A model generated the notes under the pieces. It searched no databases. It was not told the DNA's origin and saw only the letters and a program-made list of their open reading frames with translations. The position numbers and the translations under genes were made by a program. 55,450 bases of DNA from IMG/VR virus record IMGVR_UViG_3300025108_000062, positions 1-55,450 of that record, one strand, 5' to 3'. This stretch comes from a virus. Taxonomy: Duplodnaviria > Caudoviricetes. Each line of letters opens with the position of its first letter. Position 1 is the first letter of the stretch. This document shows, in pieces, positions 1,391 through 32,291 of the stretch.

Positions 1391-2449
1391 ATGAAAATAG
1401 CTCTTATTAATGATACACACGCTGGAATTAAGAATGGTTCAGATATTTTTTTGAATCACTCATCTAGTTTTTATAATGATGTCTTTTTTCCGTATTTGCT
1501 AGAAAACAACATTAAAGATATAATTCATTTAGGAGATTATTTTGATCACCGTAGATACATAAACTACAAAGTTTTAAAACAAAATTATAATGATTTTATA
1601 AAAAAACTTTATGATTATGATATGTTTATGGATATAATCCCAGGAAACCATGATGTTTATTATAAAAACACTAACGAATTAAATTCTTTAGAATTAATTT
1701 TAAACAAATATAGCGATAGGATTAATGTTTCTATGAATCCTATCGTAAAAAAATTCGCTGAATTAAAAATCGGCTTTTTACCATGGATGTGCGAAACTAA
1801 CAATGATGAATGCATGGATTTCATTAAAAATTCTGATGCATCTATTTTAATGGGTCACCTAGAATTAGGAGGATTTAAATACATGGGGAATGCTGACATT
1901 AAGTCACACGGAATGGATAGCAGTTTATTTGATCGTTATGAGTCTGTTTATTCTGGCCACTATCATACGAAAAGCAGCCAAGGAAATATTACATATCTCG
2001 GAACGCAATTTGAGCTTACTTGGTCTGATGCTCATGATCCAAAATATTTCCATATTCTTGATACAGAAACTCGTAAAGTCGAAGCAATTAAAAATCCTCA
2101 ATATCTATTTCAAAAAATTTATTATGATGAAGATAATCTTAAAGCGATAACCAGAGATGAAATTCAAAACACCTTTGTTAAAGTCATTGTAACTAATAAA
2201 AGTGATTTGTATATCTTTGACAAATTCATGGATTTGCTTTATGATTTTAATCCCTATGAAGTTCGAATCATTGAATCATTTGATGAGTATGATGGGGATA
2301 ATATTGATGATGATGCAGTAAGAGTTGATGATACTCCAACATTGCTAAACAGTTACATCGATGCTACAGAAACTAATTTAAACCAAGACGTTCTTAAAAA
2401 AATGATGCAAGAACTATTAATTGAAGCACAATCTTTAGATACTATATAA
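1391..2449 (+). CDS. 47: Recombination endonuclease subunit gp47 (Mre11/SbcD-like)
   Basis: Metallophosphoesterase motifs DTH, GDYFD, GNHD, GH, SGHYH. Confidence 0.95.
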   Translation: MKIALINDTHAGIKNGSDIFLNHSSSFYNDVFFPYLLENNIKDIIHLGDYFDHRRYINYKVLKQNYNDFIKKLYDYDMFMDIIPGNHDVYYKNTNELNSLELILNKYSDRINVSMNPIVKKFAELKIGFLPWMCETNNDECMDFIKNSDASILMGHLELGGFKYMGNADIKSHGMDSSLFDRYESVYSGHYHTKSSQGNITYLGTQFELTWSDAHDPKYFHILDTETRKVEAIKNPQYLFQKIYYDEDNLKAITRDEIQNTFVKVIVTNKSDLYIFDKFMDLLYDFNPYEVRIIESFDEYDGDNIDDDAVRVDDTPTLLNSYIDATETNLNQDVLKKMMQELLIEAQSLDTI

Positions 2450-4182
2450 TGATTACATTTAAGAAACTTACGTGGAAAAACTTTTTATCAACAGGCAACA
2501 AAGAAACAGCGATTTATCTTAATCGTGATTCTGCGACTCTTATTGTTGGTTCAAATGGTGCAGGAAAATCAACAATGCTTGATGCTTTGTCTTTTGCACT
2601 ATTTGGGAAGCCTCATAGAAGTATTAACAAACCACAATTGGTAAATTCTATAAACAACACAAAATGTCTTGTCACTGTAGAATTTTCTGTTGGATCAATT
2701 GAATACAAAATTATTCGAGGAATTAAACCTAATATTTTTGAGGTTTATCGAAATGGAGAACTATTAAACCAAGAATCACATAGCCGCGATTATCAAAAAA
2801 TCATCGAGCAAAATATTCTTAAACTTAATCATAAGTCGTTCCATCAAGTTGTTGTTTTAGGATCATCTAACTTTATTCCATTCATGCAGCTACCTTCTTA
2901 TCAAAGAAGAAACGTTATTGAAGACCTCCTTGACATTGGAATATTTACAAAAATGAACGGTGTTCTAAAAGAAAAAATTGCTATTCTTCGTCATAGCATG
3001 AGTGAAACAGATAATGAATTAAATATACTTAAAGAACGGATTGATCTTCAAACAAAACATATCGATGAACTAAAAAAGATTGATTCTTCTCATGAAGAAA
3101 AAAGAAAAAACGAAATTTTCAATTTAAACGAAGAAGTTGAAGAATTGCTTAACAGCAATTTATCACTTCAAAATGAGTATGACGAATCTTATAATACTTC
3201 AATAGAATCTCATAAAAAAGAAAAAGAAAATATGAACACTTATGCTATGAATATTAACAGTATTAAGCATAAGATGGATGATATCGTAAAAGAATCTATG
3301 TTCTATGATAAGAATGATTGTTGCCCTACGTGTGAGCAAGACATTTCGAAAGAATTGAAAGAATCTAAAAATCATAATTGCAAGATAAAAGCTAAATCTC
3401 TAAATGAAGATTACTATAAAGCAAAAAAAGAATTTAAGATAGTTGAAGAAAATGTAAATGAAATAAACAAGAAAATTGTTCACTTGAATGAAGTTAATTC
3501 AAGTATGCTTAACAACCAAACACGAATTAATATTCTTAAAAAGCGGATTCAAAGCCTTTCTAAAAATATCGATATTCAAGACACTAATGCTGCTGAAAAA
3601 ACACTGTCTAATGATAGAAGCAAAAGAGCAAATTTAAATGAAGTACGTTTAAAGCAATCACAAAAAAGCTCTTACTTTGATGCTATTAGTGAACTCTTAA
3701 GAGACACTGGAATTAAGACTAAAGTTATTCGCCAGTATCTTCCAATCATGAATAAGCTTATCAATCAATATTTACAAGTTCTTGATTTCTTTGTTCTTTT
3801 CCATCTTGACGATTCTTTTAATGAAACAATTAAATCTCGCCACCGCGATGAATTTACGTATGCATCTTTTTCAGAAGGAGAAAAACAAAGAATCGATTTA
3901 AGTTTATTGTTCTCATGGAGACAAATATCTAAAATGAAGAATAGCGCAAACACTAATCTTTTGGTTCTTGACGAAACGTTTGACTCAAGCATGGACGCAG
4001 ATGGTGTTGACAATCTTCTTAAAATTCTTAATACACTCGGTAAAGAAACGAATGTTTTTATTATTTCCCATAAACAGGATTTGTTAGAAGGTAAGTTTCC
4101 TAATAAGATTGAATTTGAAAAGGTGAACAATTTTAGTCAAATGAAAAAAAGTAGTTTACAAACAGCCAAAAATATAGTATAA
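2449..4182 (+). CDS. 46: Recombination ATPase gp46 (Rad50/SbcC-like)
   Basis: Walker A GSNGAGKST, zinc hook CPTC, signature FSEGEK, Walker B LVLDE. Confidence 0.95.
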   Translation: MITFKKLTWKNFLSTGNKETAIYLNRDSATLIVGSNGAGKSTMLDALSFALFGKPHRSINKPQLVNSINNTKCLVTVEFSVGSIEYKIIRGIKPNIFEVYRNGELLNQESHSRDYQKIIEQNILKLNHKSFHQVVVLGSSNFIPFMQLPSYQRRNVIEDLLDIGIFTKMNGVLKEKIAILRHSMSETDNELNILKERIDLQTKHIDELKKIDSSHEEKRKNEIFNLNEEVEELLNSNLSLQNEYDESYNTSIESHKKEKENMNTYAMNINSIKHKMDDIVKESMFYDKNDCCPTCEQDISKELKESKNHNCKIKAKSLNEDYYKAKKEFKIVEENVNEINKKIVHLNEVNSSMLNNQTRINILKKRIQSLSKNIDIQDTNAAEKTLSNDRSKRANLNEVRLKQSQKSSYFDAISELLRDTGIKTKVIRQYLPIMNKLINQYLQVLDFFVLFHLDDSFNETIKSRHRDEFTYASFSEGEKQRIDLSLLFSWRQISKMKNSANTNLLVLDETFDSSMDADGVDNLLKILNTLGKETNVFIISHKQDLLEGKFPNKIEFEKVNNFSQMKKSSLQTAKNIV

Positions 4183-18221: not shown

Positions 18222-19457
18222 ATGAAAATAATACATATATTAGGCAGAGGGATTGAAGGTTGCGGTGTAACACGATTTACATTAGAAATAAAAAATTGGG
18301 CCTTATCTAAGGGATGGGATTATAAAATTTATGCAACTAAAGATAAGCGTTGGACTCGGGCTAAATCCCACATTTTAGGAGAAAACGTAATTGAACAAAA
18401 ATTTGGCAATAAACCTTCTAGAGGTGATAGTGTTTGCGGCGTTGATAATATCATTGAAGATGCAAAAGATGCTGATATGGTAATTATCGGTTCGCTACCA
18501 TCGAAAGGGCATCCAGATGATTGTATTGAAAACTTTAGTAAGCTTATTAGCAGTATTGATACTAAAGTTGTTATGATTCAACATGATCATAAAATGATGT
18601 CAATCCGTAGGAATGCAGTCCTCGACGAAACAATTAAAAAGGCTGATGTTATATTCTCTTATTCTACAAAGAGTCCTTTTATGAATTATTGCAGAACTGT
18701 TGGAACAAACGCAGCGCTACACAATTTTTGTAATGGGATTGACATTTCAACAATTAAAAATGAGTATTGGAAATCAATTGAAGAGCAAGATGAAAATCAT
18801 TTAAAATGGATCGGCCGTAGTGCGTATTGGAAAGGATTTGATGTTCTTTTTGATTTATATGAAAACAACGCAAAAAACCAAGGTTTTCTTTTTACGTTAG
18901 AAGGAATGGAACGATCAATTCAGTTTGTAGATATACGCAAAAAATACGATTTTCATCATCCAGACAGCGACTTTGGTTTTAATTTAGAATACGACACTAA
19001 GCCATATGTGTTTTCAGCATACAAATACACTGAAATGCTTGAAAGATTATCTAAATGCGCCTTTGGTTTTCAGCTAACATATCTTCAGCCTGAATACATT
19101 CAAAATTTTATTGAATTTACTCACTTAGAAATTGTTGCGGCTGGATGCATTCCAATATTTAGAAAGTCTTATGGCGATCATTGCTATCATTTGCAAACTG
19201 GTAATGCAATGACTGCTGATAACGATAATGGAACAATTTGGCTAGGAGAAGTTGGCTCAGATCACGCACAAAATATGGAGTTAATTAATCAATTAAGAAA
19301 AGATTCTGTAATGCGTGATGAATGGAGACATAAAGCATATGAGTACTATTATTCTCATAATTCGCCTGATTCATCGTTTAATGATTTCTTTAATAAAGTG
19401 AAAAAAACAAATAAAGAAACTAATCGTATTATAAACATCGAAGAATTTTTTGCATAA
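18222..19457 (+). CDS. a-gt: DNA alpha-glucosyltransferase (T4 a-gt homolog)
   Basis: RGIEGCGVTRF, KDK.WTR..SH, QHDH...S.RRN..L.ET...ADVIFS, WIGR...WKG, EG.ERS, EMLER.SK, EFTHLE....G.IP. Confidence 0.88.
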   Translation: MKIIHILGRGIEGCGVTRFTLEIKNWALSKGWDYKIYATKDKRWTRAKSHILGENVIEQKFGNKPSRGDSVCGVDNIIEDAKDADMVIIGSLPSKGHPDDCIENFSKLISSIDTKVVMIQHDHKMMSIRRNAVLDETIKKADVIFSYSTKSPFMNYCRTVGTNAALHNFCNGIDISTIKNEYWKSIEEQDENHLKWIGRSAYWKGFDVLFDLYENNAKNQGFLFTLEGMERSIQFVDIRKKYDFHHPDSDFGFNLEYDTKPYVFSAYKYTEMLERLSKCAFGFQLTYLQPEYIQNFIEFTHLEIVAAGCIPIFRKSYGDHCYHLQTGNAMTADNDNGTIWLGEVGSDHAQNMELINQLRKDSVMRDEWRHKAYEYYYSHNSPDSSFNDFFNKVKKTNKETNRIINIEEFFA

Positions 19458-19458
19458 A

Positions 19459-20655
19459 ATGAAAAACAAATATAATTACGCTTCGTGCGTTCCACTTATA
19501 GGTGGTGAAACAATCGCAATGGAAAACGCCTTTGAAAAAAGACCTGAGTATATTTTATCGTATTCGCCTTTTCAAGACAACGACTCACAACTTCTAAATC
19601 ATTATAATAATGAAGTTCCATATTATTTAATTGATCAAGGGGATGAAAAGAAAAGTTATGTGGATGTAGTAAACGCTGTATGTCCATGTGCTGGGTTATC
19701 TTCACTTAGTCCATCAGCTTCTATAGATAATAAAGCAAACGATTGGATGGTTGAATCTGCAAAATACGTTTTAGGTAAAGTTAAACCTAAAGTTTTTTGG
19801 GGAGAAAACGCTCCTCGTCTTGCTTCAAAAATGGGTGGTCCTATCGTAAAAAAATTAAGAGATGTAGCAAAAGAAAATGGTTATACTCTTCTCTTATATA
19901 AAACAAAATCAAAACTTCACGGCCTAAGCCAAACTAGGGACAGATCTTTTTACTTTTTCTGGAAAGGAAAAAGAATTCCATATATGCCTTTTTATCATCG
20001 TCCACACGAAAGAATTGAAGATACTATTATAAATTCATTTGTGTCTGATGATGATCCTATGAATAAGTTGACAAACACTGGTAAACCAACAGAAAATCCT
20101 TTTTACAAATATGTTTTAGAAGAAATTGAAGGCGGTATTACTCATAGACAATTTTTTGATAAGATTGAAAAAACTATTAATCCTATGGATTATATAGAAA
20201 AACATGGTATAGAATATGATAAAGTTGCGGTTTGGATGGAAGACAATGGTTATCCTAAAAAAGCAGAAAGATGCTTGCAGGTTCATAAAAAGCTAAAAGC
20301 TGGAGGAAACGTTATGCGCAAATTAACCGAAATACCTAAGGATTACATTGGTGCTTTCGTTGGTCATATGCCAACATGTCTTACACACCCACATAAAGAT
20401 AGATATCTTACTATTCGTGAGTGTTTAGCGATTATGAAAATGCCAAAAGAGTTTCAACTTCAAGGAGGAAAAAGAAATCTTAATATGATTTGTCAAAATG
20501 TTCCTGTTACTACAGCTACAGACATGGCGTTAGGTATTAAAGATTGGCTCAATGGAAAATTAAATAGTCGTGAAGCAGATTTTGCTATCGCTGATAATAA
20601 AAAACAAACAATAGAATTTGAGGAAAATGTTCAAACCATTGAATCTTTCATTTAG
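19459..20655 (+). CDS. C5-cytosine methyltransferase-fold protein with atypical motif I
   Basis: Motif IV CPCAGLS, VI WGENAP, VIII SQTRDRSF, IX RYLTIRE, X QNVP; motif I reads PLIGG. Confidence 0.75.
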   Translation: MKNKYNYASCVPLIGGETIAMENAFEKRPEYILSYSPFQDNDSQLLNHYNNEVPYYLIDQGDEKKSYVDVVNAVCPCAGLSSLSPSASIDNKANDWMVESAKYVLGKVKPKVFWGENAPRLASKMGGPIVKKLRDVAKENGYTLLLYKTKSKLHGLSQTRDRSFYFFWKGKRIPYMPFYHRPHERIEDTIINSFVSDDDPMNKLTNTGKPTENPFYKYVLEEIEGGITHRQFFDKIEKTINPMDYIEKHGIEYDKVAVWMEDNGYPKKAERCLQVHKKLKAGGNVMRKLTEIPKDYIGAFVGHMPTCLTHPHKDRYLTIRECLAIMKMPKEFQLQGGKRNLNMICQNVPVTTATDMALGIKDWLNGKLNSREADFAIADNKKQTIEFEENVQTIESFI

Positions 20656-25806: not shown

Positions 25807-26327
25807 ACCAAAATGTACTAGAAGCACTTGATTTTCATTACGAAAATAGCATCCCACTAGCTAATAATATTTTTAGACCTCATTCTGAAAATTATTACAA
25901 ACTTTTTAGTTATGCACGTATTCTTAAAGAGTCTTTAAATTTAACTGATTTTGACGAGTATTTGTTATCAACAGACATTGGAAATTTTGGAATTTACGAA
26001 GGAATTGAAGTTCCTTTAGATCATCCATTCATCAATGAAGCAGAATACAAAGGTAATAAGGTTGATTTGAATCAACCTAAGCGAGGCGGAAGTAAGAAGT
26101 TTTATGTTTATGTTAAGAATGATAAAGGCAATATCATAAAGGTTGAGTTTGGCGATACATCAGGCCTTGATGTAAATTTCGCTGATGATGGTGCAAGGAA
26201 ATCTTTTGCTGCACGTCACAAGTGTCATCTTAAAAAAGATAAAACAAAAGCAGGATATTGGTCGTGTAATCTCCCACGATACGCATCTGAACTAGGTCTT
26301 AAAAACGGAGGTAATTTTTTCTGGTAA
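25803..26327 (+). CDS. Conserved T4-like late hypothetical protein
   Basis: EAEY.G..V.L..P.RG..KKFYVYVKN, RKSFAARHKC, AGYWSC. Confidence 0.7.
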   Translation: MNQNVLEALDFHYENSIPLANNIFRPHSENYYKLFSYARILKESLNLTDFDEYLLSTDIGNFGIYEGIEVPLDHPFINEAEYKGNKVDLNQPKRGGSKKFYVYVKNDKGNIIKVEFGDTSGLDVNFADDGARKSFAARHKCHLKKDKTKAGYWSCNLPRYASELGLKNGGNFFW

Positions 26328-27835
26328 TGAGTAATCCATATACAGACACAAAAGAAGGTAATGCGAACATTCGTATTTTTGAAGCCGCAGTAGATTCGAA
26401 AGAACTTGTTTGGCATCGTGATAAACAAAATCGGCGAGTTACTATTTTAGAAGGTGAAGGCTGGTCGTTTCAAATGGATAATAATATTCCAAAAAAATTG
26501 GTTGTAGGCGATGTTATTAATATTCCTAAAATGGAATATCATCGTATATACGAGTCAGGATCTACCAATCTTAAAATTTTAATCGAAGAACCACCTATGA
26601 AATCATTTAAAGACTATATTTCAGAAGCTTCCCGCGCTGGCAAAAACACACACATGACACATATCGAAGATCGTGTTATTTACGGTGGAGTCAAGGGAGC
26701 GAGAGAATCAATTCTTGCTCTCCGTTCTTTAAGAGATATGCTAGCTGGTAAAGTTAGTTCTTCAACTAATGTTACTGAAAAATGGGACGGTGCACCTGCG
26801 GTATTTGCCGGAATTGATCCTTCAGATGGTAAGTTTTTCGTAGCAAAAAAAGGTATTTTTAATAAAGATCCAAAGGTTTATAAGTCAGAGGCCGATGTGA
26901 GAAACGATACATCTGGCGACTTAGCAGACAAATTAGTAATCGCATTCAATGAACTTAAAGATCTTGGTATTAAAAACGTTATTCAGGGAGATATTATGTT
27001 TACAAAGGGAGACCTTGAATCTGAATCTATCGATGGTGAAAAGTATATTACATTTCAGCCTAACACCCTCGTGTATGCAGTTCCTTCCGGCTCTGATTTA
27101 GCAAAGACAATTTCAAAGGCTAATTTAGGAGTTGTATGGCATACAACTTACAAAGGTGATAGTTTTGAATCTATGACTGCATCTTATGGTGTAGACGTTT
27201 CTTCTCTTAAAAAGAAAAAAACAGTTTGGTATCAAGACGCTGATCTTAAAAATCTTTCTGGTACCGCAACATTAACTAAAGCGGATACTGAAGAAGTTAC
27301 TGAGCAACTTTCAAAAGCTGGTAAAATCTTCCAAAAGATTAAGTCGACAACTCTTAACGAGCTAGAGAATAATCCAGAACTTGCTACTAAACTTGAGACA
27401 TTTAATAACACACTAGTAAGAAAGCGTGAGCGTATTGAAAATACTGCAAAGCATGTAAATGATCTAATTGCTTGGTTTGATAAAAAACATAAAGCCGAGT
27501 ACAAAAAGCGCAAAAGTGATAAAGGCAAACGAGATATAGCACTGAAGAATGAAAACGAAATGAAATTCTTTTCTAAGGAAAATAGAAAGAACCTTGATAT
27601 GATGTATCAACTAATGAATGCAATTATTGATGCCAAGTTGATTATTATAAATAAATTAGATAAGTTAAAGGAAATTGACACTTTCATTAGAACAAAAAAA
27701 GGTTTTAAAGTAACAGGTTCAGAAGGATTTGTTGCGATTGACTATAACACTAATGGCGCAGTTAAACTAGTTGACCGATTAGAATTTTCTACAAATAATT
27801 TTTCACCAGATGTTATCAAAGGATGGGAACGATAA
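26327..27835 (+). CDS. Cupin-like N-terminal domain fused to a ligase-type nucleotidyltransferase (DUF6267-like)
   Basis: ELVWHRD cupin-like module (aa 1-90); then MKSFKDYISE; motifs TEKWDG, QGDIMF, EGFV, VKLV. Confidence 0.6.
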   Translation: MSNPYTDTKEGNANIRIFEAAVDSKELVWHRDKQNRRVTILEGEGWSFQMDNNIPKKLVVGDVINIPKMEYHRIYESGSTNLKILIEEPPMKSFKDYISEASRAGKNTHMTHIEDRVIYGGVKGARESILALRSLRDMLAGKVSSSTNVTEKWDGAPAVFAGIDPSDGKFFVAKKGIFNKDPKVYKSEADVRNDTSGDLADKLVIAFNELKDLGIKNVIQGDIMFTKGDLESESIDGEKYITFQPNTLVYAVPSGSDLAKTISKANLGVVWHTTYKGDSFESMTASYGVDVSSLKKKKTVWYQDADLKNLSGTATLTKADTEEVTEQLSKAGKIFQKIKSTTLNELENNPELATKLETFNNTLVRKRERIENTAKHVNDLIAWFDKKHKAEYKKRKSDKGKRDIALKNENEMKFFSKENRKNLDMMYQLMNAIIDAKLIIINKLDKLKEIDTFIRTKKGFKVTGSEGFVAIDYNTNGAVKLVDRLEFSTNNFSPDVIKGWER

Positions 27836-29748
27836 AAAAAATAAACAATATTAAAGGCTTTAAACAGTTTAATGAAGACAGCGTAAAGGCAATAGTTTTT
27901 ACGTTTGGAAGATTTAATCCACCTACTGTTGGACACGGCAAGCTTATAACCAAGGTAGCTGCAGCAGCTATTGGAAATCAGTATCGTATATATGCTTCGC
28001 AATCTAATGATTCTAAAAAGAATCCTCTTAAATATAAAGAGAAAATTCGTGTTATGCGCAAAATGTTTCCAAAACACGGAAGAAACATTATTGAAGATAA
28101 GAATGCAAAAACTGCATTGCACATCGCTTCTATTTTACATGACCAAGGTTTTACAAAGCTGACTATGGTTGTTGGCTCTGACCGCATAAAAGAATTCCAA
28201 AAACTTCTTAAAAACTATAATGGTGTAAAAGGCCGCCATGGATTTTATGATTTCAATGATGGTATAGAAGTTATTTCAGCCGGTGAGAGAGATCCTGATG
28301 CAGAAGGTGTTGAAGGAATGAGTGCTTCTAAGATGCGTTCAGCAGCAATCGACGGCGACTTTAAATCTTTCAGCCAAGGATTACCAAAGGAGTATGGCGA
28401 AGACATGACACTGTTTAATCTAATTCGAAAAAGAATGGGCTTAAAAGAAAAGGTCAGCTTTCGTAAACACATTCAACTTCCAAGTTTTTCAGAAAAAAGA
28501 GAGCAGTATATTTCAGGCGAAATATTTAATGTCGGAGACACTGCTGTTACTGAGTCTAATGATGAAATCGTAATTAAAGAAAGAAAGTCAAATTACGTTA
28601 TTGATTCAAAAAACAAAAAACATTTTATTGAAAAAATCAATCCTTCTTATAAAAAAGATTTGTCAAAATCAACTACGGCAAAACGCCAAGCTCAGTTTAA
28701 TAAGCAGGCTAAAATGGACGATGATGATCCTAAAGCTTATAAGAAAGCCCCAGGAGATGCTCGAGCAAAGACAAAGGTTTCTAAGCACACAAAGGCATAT
28801 CATAAAAAATTCGGTAAAAAAGAAGCCTTGGATCAAGGAACAGATGAGTTAGTTAAAGCGTACAAAAAGCTTACACCTCTCGAAGAAAAACAAATTGCTG
28901 GTCTTAAGAAAAAAGCAGAAGAATCTGGTATGCCATATAGTGTATTGAAAAAGGTGTTTGACCGCGGAATGGCCGCATGGAAGACCGGCCATCGTCCAGG
29001 AGCAACTCCTCATCAGTGGGCGTATGCACGAGTCAATTCTTTTGTTACAAAGAGTAAAGGCACATGGGGTGGAGCCGATAAAGACTTAGCAGCAAAGGTT
29101 AGAAAAGAATCAATTGAGGAAGAAGCTGTGTGTCCTCCGGCAACACAAGATTTAAAAATAAATACAAAAAATCGAGATGCCACAATTAAAGAGTATAATT
29201 ATGGTCCTTTAAATGTTGATGAACCTGGCACTTATTGGAAAGATATTGCTAAGTATTGGAAAACAACTGTACAAGCTGCGCAGAAGTCAATCTGTGAAAA
29301 TTGCGTTGCCTTTGATATCTCTCCTAGAATGAAAGATTGTATGCCTGGTGAAACATCTGATGAAGATGGTGAACTTGGTTATTGCTGGATGCATCACTTT
29401 AAATGCCATTCTGCTCGAGCTTGTCATACGTGGGCTAAAGGAGGTCCAATTGACACTGATAAAATTTCAGCTGAATGGGCTAAGAGAGCAGGCAAAGACT
29501 ATTTTAAAGAAGATACCAAAACATTTTCGGAAGGACCAGGCAAATATAAAGGAGAAACTTGGGAAGACGGTTTTAAAAGACGTGTAGTAAAAACAACAAA
29601 GCCTGAACATAAAGAAAAAGGTTACAGTTGGCGCATTAAAGGAAAGGAGCGGGACGAAATTTCAATTAAGCTTTATAAAGAAAAGCCTGATTTTAAAGAA
29701 TTTGAAAATCAAATGAAACGAGTCGCTGGCCATGAGTTTGGTGGTTAA
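27823..29748 (+). CDS. Cytidylyltransferase-like (HIGH superfamily) protein with C-terminal accessory modules
   Basis: FTFGRFNPPTVGHGKL, VVGSDR, SAGERDPDAEG..GMSASKMR; Cys/His module C..C...YC..HHFKC....C. Confidence 0.8.
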   Translation: MGTIKKINNIKGFKQFNEDSVKAIVFTFGRFNPPTVGHGKLITKVAAAAIGNQYRIYASQSNDSKKNPLKYKEKIRVMRKMFPKHGRNIIEDKNAKTALHIASILHDQGFTKLTMVVGSDRIKEFQKLLKNYNGVKGRHGFYDFNDGIEVISAGERDPDAEGVEGMSASKMRSAAIDGDFKSFSQGLPKEYGEDMTLFNLIRKRMGLKEKVSFRKHIQLPSFSEKREQYISGEIFNVGDTAVTESNDEIVIKERKSNYVIDSKNKKHFIEKINPSYKKDLSKSTTAKRQAQFNKQAKMDDDDPKAYKKAPGDARAKTKVSKHTKAYHKKFGKKEALDQGTDELVKAYKKLTPLEEKQIAGLKKKAEESGMPYSVLKKVFDRGMAAWKTGHRPGATPHQWAYARVNSFVTKSKGTWGGADKDLAAKVRKESIEEEAVCPPATQDLKINTKNRDATIKEYNYGPLNVDEPGTYWKDIAKYWKTTVQAAQKSICENCVAFDISPRMKDCMPGETSDEDGELGYCWMHHFKCHSARACHTWAKGGPIDTDKISAEWAKRAGKDYFKEDTKTFSEGPGKYKGETWEDGFKRRVVKTTKPEHKEKGYSWRIKGKERDEISIKLYKEKPDFKEFENQMKRVAGHEFGG

Positions 29749-30437: not shown

Positions 30438-30453
30438 CAATATAAATAGAATT

Positions 30454-32157
30454 ATGTACCAAGACGATTTAACGAAAAAAATTGCCAACGCGGCAAAAGA
30501 AGTACTTGAAAATAAAAAAGTAAAAGAAACTGAGGTTCAGCCTTCAGACAAAGACTTTGTCGATCTTCATTCGATTGATAAAGGAAAGCGTCGTGGCTCA
30601 ACTCCTCTTACGGAAAAAGATATTGACGAAGCAAATGAATTTACTAAAGCTGCCGCAAAAGCCGCAGTTGCTGGTGATGACGAGTTTGAATTTGACGGTA
30701 AGAAATTCCCTACTGAAATGGATGTTGAAGTAGCCAAGAAAATCCTTGGTGAGTCAACAGAGCTTGATGAAGCTACCATGAGCTCAGGCGTAAAAATGGC
30801 AGGTGAACGCATTTATGCTTTAGAGAAACAACTAAAAGTCGGATCAGCGGTAAATAAGGGTGTTAACAAAGCACTTGGAGGAAAGTACGATGGTGACTTT
30901 AAGGATATGACGAAAGCTATCGATAAAGTCATTTCTGTTTGGGAAGAAATTGAGTTTCAGTACGGCCAGAGTGAGTCAACTAATGTTGACGAATCAGTCG
31001 ATCTTGATGAAGCATATATTGACGTTGATACTGCCGATCCAAAATCAATTGAATTTGCAAAGCTGATGAAAAAGTATCGTGTTAAAGGAAGAATTATAAC
31101 AATGAAAGGCCCTGGCGGTGGAATGCCATTGGTTAGGCTTACTGGTAAAAAGAAAGACCTAGAAGGCATTTTAAAAGATCCTAAAGGTTGGCAGGATGAC
31201 GGATTCCTTGCAGGATTTATTGAGGAATCGGCCAATCCTGGAAAGGCTATCGAAGAAGCTATAAAAGGACTTTCTGAAGAACAAATCGATGAGCTTATTG
31301 GTGGATTGCTTAAAAAAGGAGCTAAGGCTTTAGGCAAGGCTGTAAAAAGTCGTGTTACTAAATCCGGAAGACAAGATCGTGCTGACAAAAAACACAAGTT
31401 AGACGTACGAGGAAAAAAACTTGAAATAAAGAAAAAAATTAATGACATTTTAGATAAAAAGAGTAAAGCTCAAAAGAAAAAAAGAGATGTCGAAAAAGAC
31501 TCAAAAGCTGCAAAAGCACTTGATGACAAAATTGATGGATATAAAACACGTATTGATCAACTTAAGGATAAAATGAACGATATTGTTGAAAGCGATATTG
31601 AAGAATCTAACAGTTGAAAAGATAAAGTAGAATCTGAGTCTCAGGTTGATGAAGCAGTTAGACCAAACGATAAAGTTTTTGTTAAAGGAAAAAACAGAGA
31701 TGGTAAAACCATAAGTTATTTTGCGTTCGGCGCATCTTTTAAAGAAGTTAAAGCTTTTAGGAGGGCAATAAAGAAACTGCTATCTGATCACGCTCAGAAA
31801 AAATTTGATGTTTATGTTGATGGAAATTCAGACCTTGTAGATTCTGATTCAAGCAAAACGATTGTTAGATTTGATGACAAAATGACAGTTGCTGACGTTG
31901 CTAAAGCTGTCGAAGAGTTTATCAATAAAGAGTATCCTCCAAAGAAAGCTGCTCCTGCTGTTGACTATAAAACAGACACACGTACAATTGTTACAGCCGA
32001 TGATGAAAAAGCAAAAGAGCTTAAGAAAAAATATCACGGCAAAGGAACTAAAGTACGAATTATGAAGAGAAAATCTGGTAATAAGGTATACATCGATTCT
32101 AAAACATCTGAAATTCATAAAGCAATTAATGATGCATTAGCTGATGAATTGAATTAA
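30454..32157 (+). CDS. Probable internal head/core protein interrupted by one in-frame TGA (31615-31617)
   Basis: ORFs 30454-31617 and 31882-32157 share a frame, which is open for the 88 codons between them; [ILV]DEA repeats on both sides of the TGA. Confidence 0.6.
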
Positions 32158-32291
32158 ACAACAAAAATAAAATGACATTTGAGTTAATGACTGATGGAAT
32201 AACAGCTATTGTTCTTTTGTCGTGTGTTTCCTTATTAATAATGAATATGCGTCAATAGACTTGCAGTATAAAGGTTAGATAAATAACTTAT

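Follow-up and report, generated by a model that had tools for sequence, protein, structure and literature searches.

A conserved in-frame UGA and its hairpin-bearing cassette in uncultured marine T4-like phages: a candidate for programmed stop-codon read-through

The viral contig IMGVR_UViG_3300025108_000062, analysed here over its entire length of 55,450 bp (hereafter the window), has a G+C content of 35%, bears all its large open reading frames (ORFs) on one strand and encodes that part of a T4-like myovirus which serves replication and nucleotide metabolism. At positions 30454–32157 lies a gene whose frame is interrupted by an in-frame TGA, which forms, with the few codons around it and a small hairpin, the cassette under study; the phages bearing it are uncultured marine T4-like phages. 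As the original prediction had described, an ORF of 387 codons ends at this TGA, the next 88 codons hold no ATG, GTG or TTG (the first being found at 31882), and the frame reaches 567 residues in total. The elements surrounding the stop are listed below.

30454–31614, + strand: upstream ORF of 387 codons, from the ATG at 30454 to the TGA, without Pfam match
31603–31614, + strand: 5' context GAA TCT AAC AGT (E-S-N-S), from the junction alignment
31615–31617, + strand: in-frame TGA, the candidate recoding site, present in all 19 distinct homologous junctions
31618–31630, + strand: A-rich spacer AAAGATAAAGTAG (K-D-K-V-) of 13 nt, from the junction alignment
31631–31647, + strand: hairpin AAUCUGA-GUC-UCAGGUU of 7 bp, drawn by RNAfold and RNAalifold; the first base of the loop is always G
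31618–32154, + strand: read-through extension of 179 codons, without start for 88 codons, with folded domains
32155–32157, + strand: final stop TAA, ending the 567-residue frame if the TGA is read

Besides its conserved N-terminal module, the upstream ORF, which is always translated, contains further modules and a helical region rich in Lys. TGA otherwise acts as a normal stop in this genome, ending 13 of the 77 ORFs of the window, and the in-frame extension past it reaches 179 codons here versus at most 21 in the other TGA-ended ORFs, in agreement with the earlier claim that the remaining TGA codons are real stops. The contigs of runs X9 and X11 cross the TGA and show no difference there among the matches listed.

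The in-frame TGA and its nine-codon cassette

Relatives of the gene were sought in IMG/VR from either half of the protein, among metagenome contigs, and in one contig (L106) of a metagenome-assembled genome (MAG) from GTDB. Of 28 contigs with the conserved N-terminal module, 10 carry the TGA in its context, 10 are complete and TGA-less, 7 are cut by a contig end and 1 was left out. In metagenomes, a pattern that placed no constraint on the stop codon, on the loop or on the hairpin's 3' arm gave 32 matches, including 16 homologous junctions that all contain TGA; the other 16, with sense codons, were rejected as chance matches because their downstream sequences share nothing. Pooling metagenomes, IMG/VR and the MAG contig yielded 19 distinct junction sequences, and the alignment of homologs at this codon proposed earlier revealed TGA in every one, never TGY, TGG or another sense codon, the next base being A in 18 and C in 1. 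A word-based search of a collection of 5.8 billion proteins, covering proteins of 311–993 aa, likewise returned no sense codon in an intact cassette.

Judged from these alignments, the in-frame stop is held with the same few flanking codons and the small hairpin in every relative that carries it. The cassette consensus reads E-x-N-G/S, TGA, K-D-K-x-K/E-S/P-E/G-x-Q-V/I, with E-x-N-G upstream of the stop in the 17 close variants other than the window (ESNG also in L106) and G-S-D in the divergent L010. This latter variant retains only the UGA, K-D-K and the hairpin, at an unchanged distance from the TGA and in a different peptide register. By contrast with the cassette, the flanking modules change between phages, with at least 5 different downstream modules, 106 to 387 codons ahead of the cassette and 87 to 367 after it. 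Among the 18 aligned variants the frame is always open past the TGA (87–367 codons in 16, with contig ends at 44 and 129 in the two others), and the first ATG, GTG or TTG follows 21–89 codons downstream at an unconserved position.

The same downstream modules also occur inside TGA-less proteins of relatives (e.g. L018/P0006). One of these fused relatives, P0003 (595 aa, from a 14-member cluster), aligns across the junction and holds both halves in one polypeptide, with a sole gap of 9 residues placed exactly over the cassette. On this alignment the cassette is therefore a block of 9 codons that was inserted into an ordinary 'EES..ESQVDEA' linker or deleted from it. A DNA locus for P0003 was sought with a degenerate ESESQVDEA pattern, which matched only an unrelated acidic protein, and with a protein-guided scan, which returned no close locus. 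The matched stretch (L085, reverse strand, about 3640–3666 of the reversed locus) encodes ESESQVDEA as GAA TCA GAA TCA CAA GTT without hairpin, in an unrelated, very acidic frame of 258 residues that has a scaffold-like composition and uses common codons.

Two further observations concern the ends of these genes. In L006 (4402–4416) the gene ends with ...SESNK TAA directly before a DUF7207 gene, at the place where others have ...ESNG TGA and the extension. Tandem stops (TAA TAA, TGA TAA, TAG TAA TAA; e.g. L002 4867–4872, L003 3193–3198, L004 5008–5016) end 9 of the 16 complete read-through ORFs, the window copy having a single TAA.

Selection acts on the stretch behind the stop as on a coding sequence. 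Over codons 14–88 past the TGA, dN/dS (the ratio of non-synonymous to synonymous substitution rates) is 0.06–0.24 in 5 comparisons; against relatives, the whole C-terminal part gives 0.20–0.28 and the N-terminal part 0.24–0.38. Because this purifying selection acts on a stretch without start codon, the comparison indicates that the extension is translated. The AlphaFold2 (AF2) model of the 179-residue extension reaches a mean predicted local distance difference test (pLDDT) score of 83, with the cassette residues 1–11 disordered. Gene callers split these genes in two and begin the C-terminal part at varying internal positions, inside domains, which is a concern for their annotation. A stop that is conserved while its start-less in-frame extension stays under purifying selection is the pattern of Q-beta A1-type read-through.

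The hairpin downstream of the UGA

The hairpin that had been proposed at 31631–31647 as AATCTG-AGTCT-CAGGTT is present, and RNAfold and RNAalifold draw it with 7 bp and the loop GUC. The RNAalifold consensus over 18 junctions is this same hairpin, with the loop GUC, GGU or GGA, and its stem starts at a fixed 13 nt after the UGA; the conservation that had been asked for was thus found, the distance being kept even in the divergent L010. In the alignment 98.4% of the cells are paired, versus at most 46% when the partner is slid, and the third pair occurs as U-G, U-A or C-G, never as C-A. The folding energy ranges from -3.7 to -7.0 kcal/mol among the 8 hairpin variants. Such a hairpin is not above chance by itself, since in the window one of this geometry and stability occurs behind 3.8% of random positions and behind 5.3% of UGA trinucleotides; its combination with the TGA and the cassette, found in 19 of 19 distinct junctions, is beyond chance. 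A terminator-like site further downstream (31722–31734) is within chance (2 found versus 1.2 expected).

Within the 10 codons past the TGA, 6 vary in amino acid and third positions account for only 2 of the 10 variable columns. GAG or GGG and CAG occur in every variant, for a window in which GAG makes up 19% of the Glu codons and CAG 26% of the Gln codons. The window and L002 differ in the cassette by 5 non-synonymous and 0 synonymous changes. Together with the hairpin-less coding of ESESQVDEA in the unrelated L085 frame and the unchanged hairpin distance in L010, these are signs of a constraint that acts on the RNA rather than on the peptide.

Possible decoding of the UGA and presumed nature of the protein

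The original prediction had called the product a late head protein. The only support for its lateness is the presence of TATAAATA 5 nt ahead of the ATG, while a location in the head is conjectural. The following elements of the gene bear on this point.

30441–30448, + strand: TATAAATA, motif resembling a late promoter of the T4 type, 5 nt ahead of the ATG
30454–30495, + strand: N-terminus MYQDDLTKKIANAA, resembling the capsid targeting sequence of T4 IPII/IPIII
30763–30774, + strand: linker motif L-D-E-A (residues 104–107), one of five [LIV][DE]EA
30622–30633, 31003–31014, 31249–31260 and 31645–31656, + strand: the other [LIV][DE]EA copies, from the motif count

The exact TATAAATA, which we take to be the T4 late-promoter consensus, stands upstream of the gene in 11 of the 17 family members examined. 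Relatives begin with MKPQDQALANIAE or MYQDDLTKKLAE, each followed by A, where T4 IPII/IPIII, translated from the T4 record, begin with MKTYQEFIAE, also followed by A; the window reads I-A-N-A where relatives read [IL]-A-E-A, and we take the likeness of this N-terminus to the T4 capsid targeting sequence as a lead only. The [LIV][DE]EA motif occurs 5 times in the 567 residues versus 2 times in the 16,095 residues of the other ORFs (8.8 versus 0.12 per 1000 aa, an approximately 70-fold enrichment), and 1 of the 5 copies lies after the TGA (V398-D-E-A), in agreement with the earlier remark that the repeat continues past the stop. This motif fits the L/I-X-E site behind which gp21, the prohead protease of T4, cleaves its substrates, as first shown at a Glu-Ala bond (PMC9026906). 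T4 internal proteins are described (PMC3012670 and PMC9026906) as diverse between relatives and sharing only the targeting signal.

We infer from these motifs that the protein could be a late, capsid-targeted polyprotein that the prohead protease would cut in its linkers, between the Glu and the Ala that end [LIV][DE]EA. The downstream modules would therefore need no start of their own: having no targeting signal, they would reach the prohead only when fused to the signal at the N-terminus, and the leaky stop would keep the dose of these C-terminal modules low, following a Gag-Pol logic.

That the UGA is read as sense in one way or another, suppressor tRNA and selenocysteine included, seems quite likely to us, and programmed UGA read-through, giving isoforms of 387 and 567 aa, has in our judgement somewhat better than even chances of being the mechanism. 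Most ribosomes would stop at the TGA and release the 387-aa protein, while some would read the UGA through a tRNA, most likely a near-cognate one (tRNA-Trp, for example), and translate 179 more codons. The signal would consist of the Asn-Gly/Ser codons, the UGA with A (in one variant C) as its next base, the A-rich K-D-K spacer and the hairpin, carried together as a portable 9-codon cassette in an ordinary inter-module linker, the hairpin and the context raising the read-through rate. Of the options raised by the original prediction, regulated read-through into a short and a long protein is the best supported, through the conserved TGA, flanks and hairpin, the purifying selection and the fused relative.

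A more speculative reading, which we consider doubtful, would make of the cassette a portable recoding module, gained or lost by T4-like phages in the linkers of a capsid-targeted polyprotein, that doses the downstream cargo domains as Gag-Pol does in retroviruses, the hairpin binding a trans-acting factor. The hairpin with its invariant loop G would then be no passive roadblock, and a host or phage factor would tune the read-through of the UGA in the course of infection, in a SECIS-like (selenocysteine insertion sequence-like) mechanism without selenocysteine.

Several points weigh against programmed read-through. The candidate read-through is deduced from sequence, and P0003 shows that fusion of the two halves is tolerated, not that read-through happens. 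The leaky UGA-A context pointed out earlier is present but does not suffice as a signal, since 8 of the window's 13 ordinary TGA stops share it, TGA-A being their commonest context. The covariation of the hairpin is not significant (its score was reached in 316 of 500 shuffles) and no pair is altered on both sides relative to the commonest pair, so that its conservation could reflect hitch-hiking on a recently spread cassette. The distance of 13 nt exceeds that of classical read-through and frameshift stimulators and is nearer to the SECIS geometry; Gag-Pol and alphavirus signals have pseudoknots or extended structures about 8 nt downstream. The RNA run X23 carries parts of the gene, not the junction.

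As for the protein, the capsid-polyprotein idea rests on short motifs, and the full-length AF2 model is poor (pLDDT 50), the linkers not being mappable on it. Neither Pfam nor PDB nor Foldseek yielded a match to a family, structure or fold: neither half had a significant match in Pfam or PHROGs, nor did 9 relatives or modules in Pfam; the PDB sequence search gave only coiled-coil noise at E ~0.08, and the confident C-part model found no PDB match in Foldseek at E <= 0.001. ESM Atlas provided no usable match, and the read-through protein had no tblastn match among 50,697 phage records, hence no cultured relative there.

Among the competing explanations, true termination at the TGA, with the downstream part made by non-canonical initiation or re-initiation, is unlikely. 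Gene callers do annotate the C-terminal part as a separate gene, and Shine-Dalgarno motifs are at chance level in the window (AGGA, GGAG or GAGG at -18 to -4 in 7 of 78 ORFs versus 8.7% of random positions), so that initiation rules may be unusual. Separate initiation would nonetheless have to dispense with ATG, GTG and TTG over those 21–89 codons, none of the codons that come next to the TGA (AAR GAY AAA) is a near-cognate start, and purifying selection begins right past the cassette; the presence of the same modules inside longer proteins of relatives argues in the same direction.

We also consider it quite unlikely that an opal suppressor tRNA (anticodon UCA), from the phage or its host, decodes the UGA, perhaps only late in infection. 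T4-like phages do carry tRNA genes, 4 of which were found in the window (Thr, Asn, Leu(taa) and Met), and the tandem stops described above would be in line with suppression. However, 2 of the 5 relative records searched with the tRNA family contributed Leu and Met tRNAs, and no suppressor or selenocysteine tRNA was found in the window, which represents about 1/3 of a genome, or in these 5 related IMG/VR fragments, which are rated 7–13% complete (10–13% for those of 17–22 kb). A general suppressor would moreover extend the other 12 TGA-ended genes, and would leave the conserved cassette and hairpin unexplained.

Selenocysteine insertion, the other option of the original prediction, in which the hairpin would be a bacterial SECIS bound by the host SelB, is improbable. 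The in-frame UGA is conserved in all 19 junction variants, and all 18 aligned variants have a loop that begins with G and continues with U or G, this invariant first G falling on a third codon position. With the UGA in the A site the hairpin lies outside the ribosome, which suits a protein-binding element. The bacterial SECIS consensus given in PMC13188914 (Fig. 2 legend) comprises a loop of 3–9 nt, an upper stem of 4–16 bp, a G in the first two loop positions, a distance of 16–37 nt from the UGA to the loop and a minimum free energy (MFE) that does not exceed -7.5 kcal/mol. The hairpin agrees with it in geometry (loop GUC or AGUCU of 3–5 nt, stem of 6–7 bp, spacing of 20 nt) but not in stability, since 0 of the 8 variants reach -7.5 kcal/mol; its SECIS-like character thus holds for the shape only. 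Rfam placed no SECIS family at E up to 10 and returned only chance matches (E >= 0.38) between 31400 and 31900.

The protein itself is hardly that of a selenoprotein either. No Cys or other sense codon replaces the UGA in the 19 junctions or in the protein search, the 567 residues contain zero Cys and no CxxU-type motif, and the UGA codon sits in a disordered, charged linker from which P0003 deletes it with 8 neighbours. A selB above the curated cut-off was found in 0 of 61 family genomes and 0 of 201 order genomes around the MAG of L106, the E. coli control being positive; this only leans against selenocysteine because the link of this MAG to the phage host is weak. The selenoproteome paper of the Global Ocean Sampling (GOS) has no passage on phage, Pelagibacter or cyanobacteria.

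Translational bypass, a frameshift pair or a stop-reassigned genome, all highly improbable, were rejected. The GAA TCT direct repeat that flanks the 9-codon cassette in 4 variants and the vicinity of stop and hairpin recall the T4 gene 60, but no in-frame landing codon matches the one that precedes the stop (GGN or AGT), the nearest GGU or AGU being out of frame, both other frames close within few codons, and the code does not appear reassigned because only 1 of the 13 TGA-ended ORFs has a long extension. Absence of function, through a nonsense mutation or sequencing error as once envisaged, a decaying gene or an assembly error, would account for a bare in-frame stop only and is excluded for practical purposes by 19 distinct junctions from independent assemblies that all read TGA, by other-run contigs that agree among the matches listed and by the purifying selection downstream (dN/dS 0.06–0.24).

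Programmed stop-codon read-through is textbook knowledge for RNA viruses and phage Q-beta, and short and long proteins from a leaky stop are hardly known for DNA phages. Full-text literature searches and passages of recoding reviews contain no described case in a tailed dsDNA phage. Among the nearest known systems is Q-beta A1 (cited in PMC7026636). There, a leaky UGA at the end of the coat gene, read at low frequency in a bacterial host, gives a short major and an extended minor product from one frame. Here, by contrast, the phage is a large dsDNA T4-like one, the stop belongs to a portable 9-codon cassette with a hairpin at fixed distance, and this cassette sits between shuffled modules of a multi-domain protein, some relatives being fused and cassette-less. 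The gammaretrovirus Gag-Pol (UAG) also resembles it, as a polyprotein in which a leaky stop sets the ratio of upstream to downstream parts and the latter is targeted through the former before separation by a protease (PMC5009743 and PMC7026636), and so does the opal codon within the alphavirus nsP3 polyprotein; these systems are eukaryotic, whereas packaging and cleavage are only inferred here.

Bacterial SECIS elements such as that of E. coli fdhF share the in-frame UGA and, about 20 nt later, a small apical loop starting with G-U or G-G, and differ in that the present hairpin is too weak and lies in a dispensable linker, without Cys homologues, redox motif or Rfam match. The T4 proteins IPI, IPII and IPIII and other gp21 substrates are alike in being late genes (here presumably so) outside the structural cluster (PMC9026906 and PMC3012670), in their N-terminus of the type M-K-x-x-Q-D/E...[IL]-A-E before A, in recurring L/I-X-E sites before A and in a content variable between phages; the protein described here has no sequence homology to them, is far longer and multi-modular, and shows I-A-N-A in the window copy, its cleavage and packaging being putative. 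Genome-wide stop-codon reassignment has reportedly been found in phages (Ivanova in 2014 and Borges in 2022), with in-frame stops in late phage genes as is probably the case here; the present case differs by its single conserved site, by the 13 of 77 ORFs that TGA ends normally and by the lack of a suppressor tRNA among those seen.

The cassette comes with natural controls, being found in about 19 sequence contexts, in the divergent L010 and as a clean deletion in a relative, and with its length of about 50 nt a minimal UGA read-through signal in bacteria would be directly testable by reporter. If the capsid-polyprotein idea is true, it would reveal a way in which phages fix the relative amounts of their injected or internal proteins.

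Source contig, neighbouring genes and host

The replication genes of the window include a gp43-type polymerase, a clamp loader, gp46/47, UvsX, gp41 and a primase, accompanied by an alpha-glucosyltransferase, nrdA and nrdB. The polymerase is 45–48% identical to those of Synechococcus myophages and of 'Phage C48C1'. The alpha-glucosyltransferase (PF11440) is followed by a C5-cytosine-methylase-like gene (18222–20655 for the two), and both are probably DNA hypermodification genes. Over the whole window, TATAAATA occurs at 11 sites between 7739 and 52058, all on the + strand (e.g. 23954, 23963, 29762, 30441, 36801 and 52051), a total not above that of shuffled sequences (7.4 +/- 2.5); most of them precede an ORF start by a few nt or by up to about 45 nt, as read off the ORF list, and may be late promoters scattered through the replication arm.

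The region upstream of the ORF starts is A/T-rich, and the chance-level occurrence of Shine-Dalgarno motifs, whose absence is typical of Bacteroidota, suggests a host that does not use them, such as a member of this phylum. The junction contig L106 (4.4 kb) was binned in a Crocinitomicaceae MAG (GTDB) and carries at 1761–3872 a near-identical N-terminal part, the same TGA cassette and three C-terminal modules; it has the appearance of phage sequence that ended up in a bacterial bin, and the link to a Crocinitomicaceae host that it provides is weak. In another locus (L104, G003:C1:465–587), a stretch of 123 nt matches the Rfam tRNA family at 31.9 bits without ARAGORN call, and could represent either an insert-bearing tRNA or a chance match.

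Two genes upstream of the one under study match phrog_455. One encodes a DUF6267 protein of 502 aa (26327–27835) and the other a protein of 641 aa (27823–29748) with a cytidylyltransferase-like N-terminus and a DUF5824, the latter having a multi-modular appearance like the gene studied here. Downstream, between this gene and a DUF7207 gene, a hydrophobic ORF of 29 codons (MTFELMTDGITAIVLLSCVSLLIMNMRQ, 32172–32261), seen by eye, may encode a small membrane peptide.

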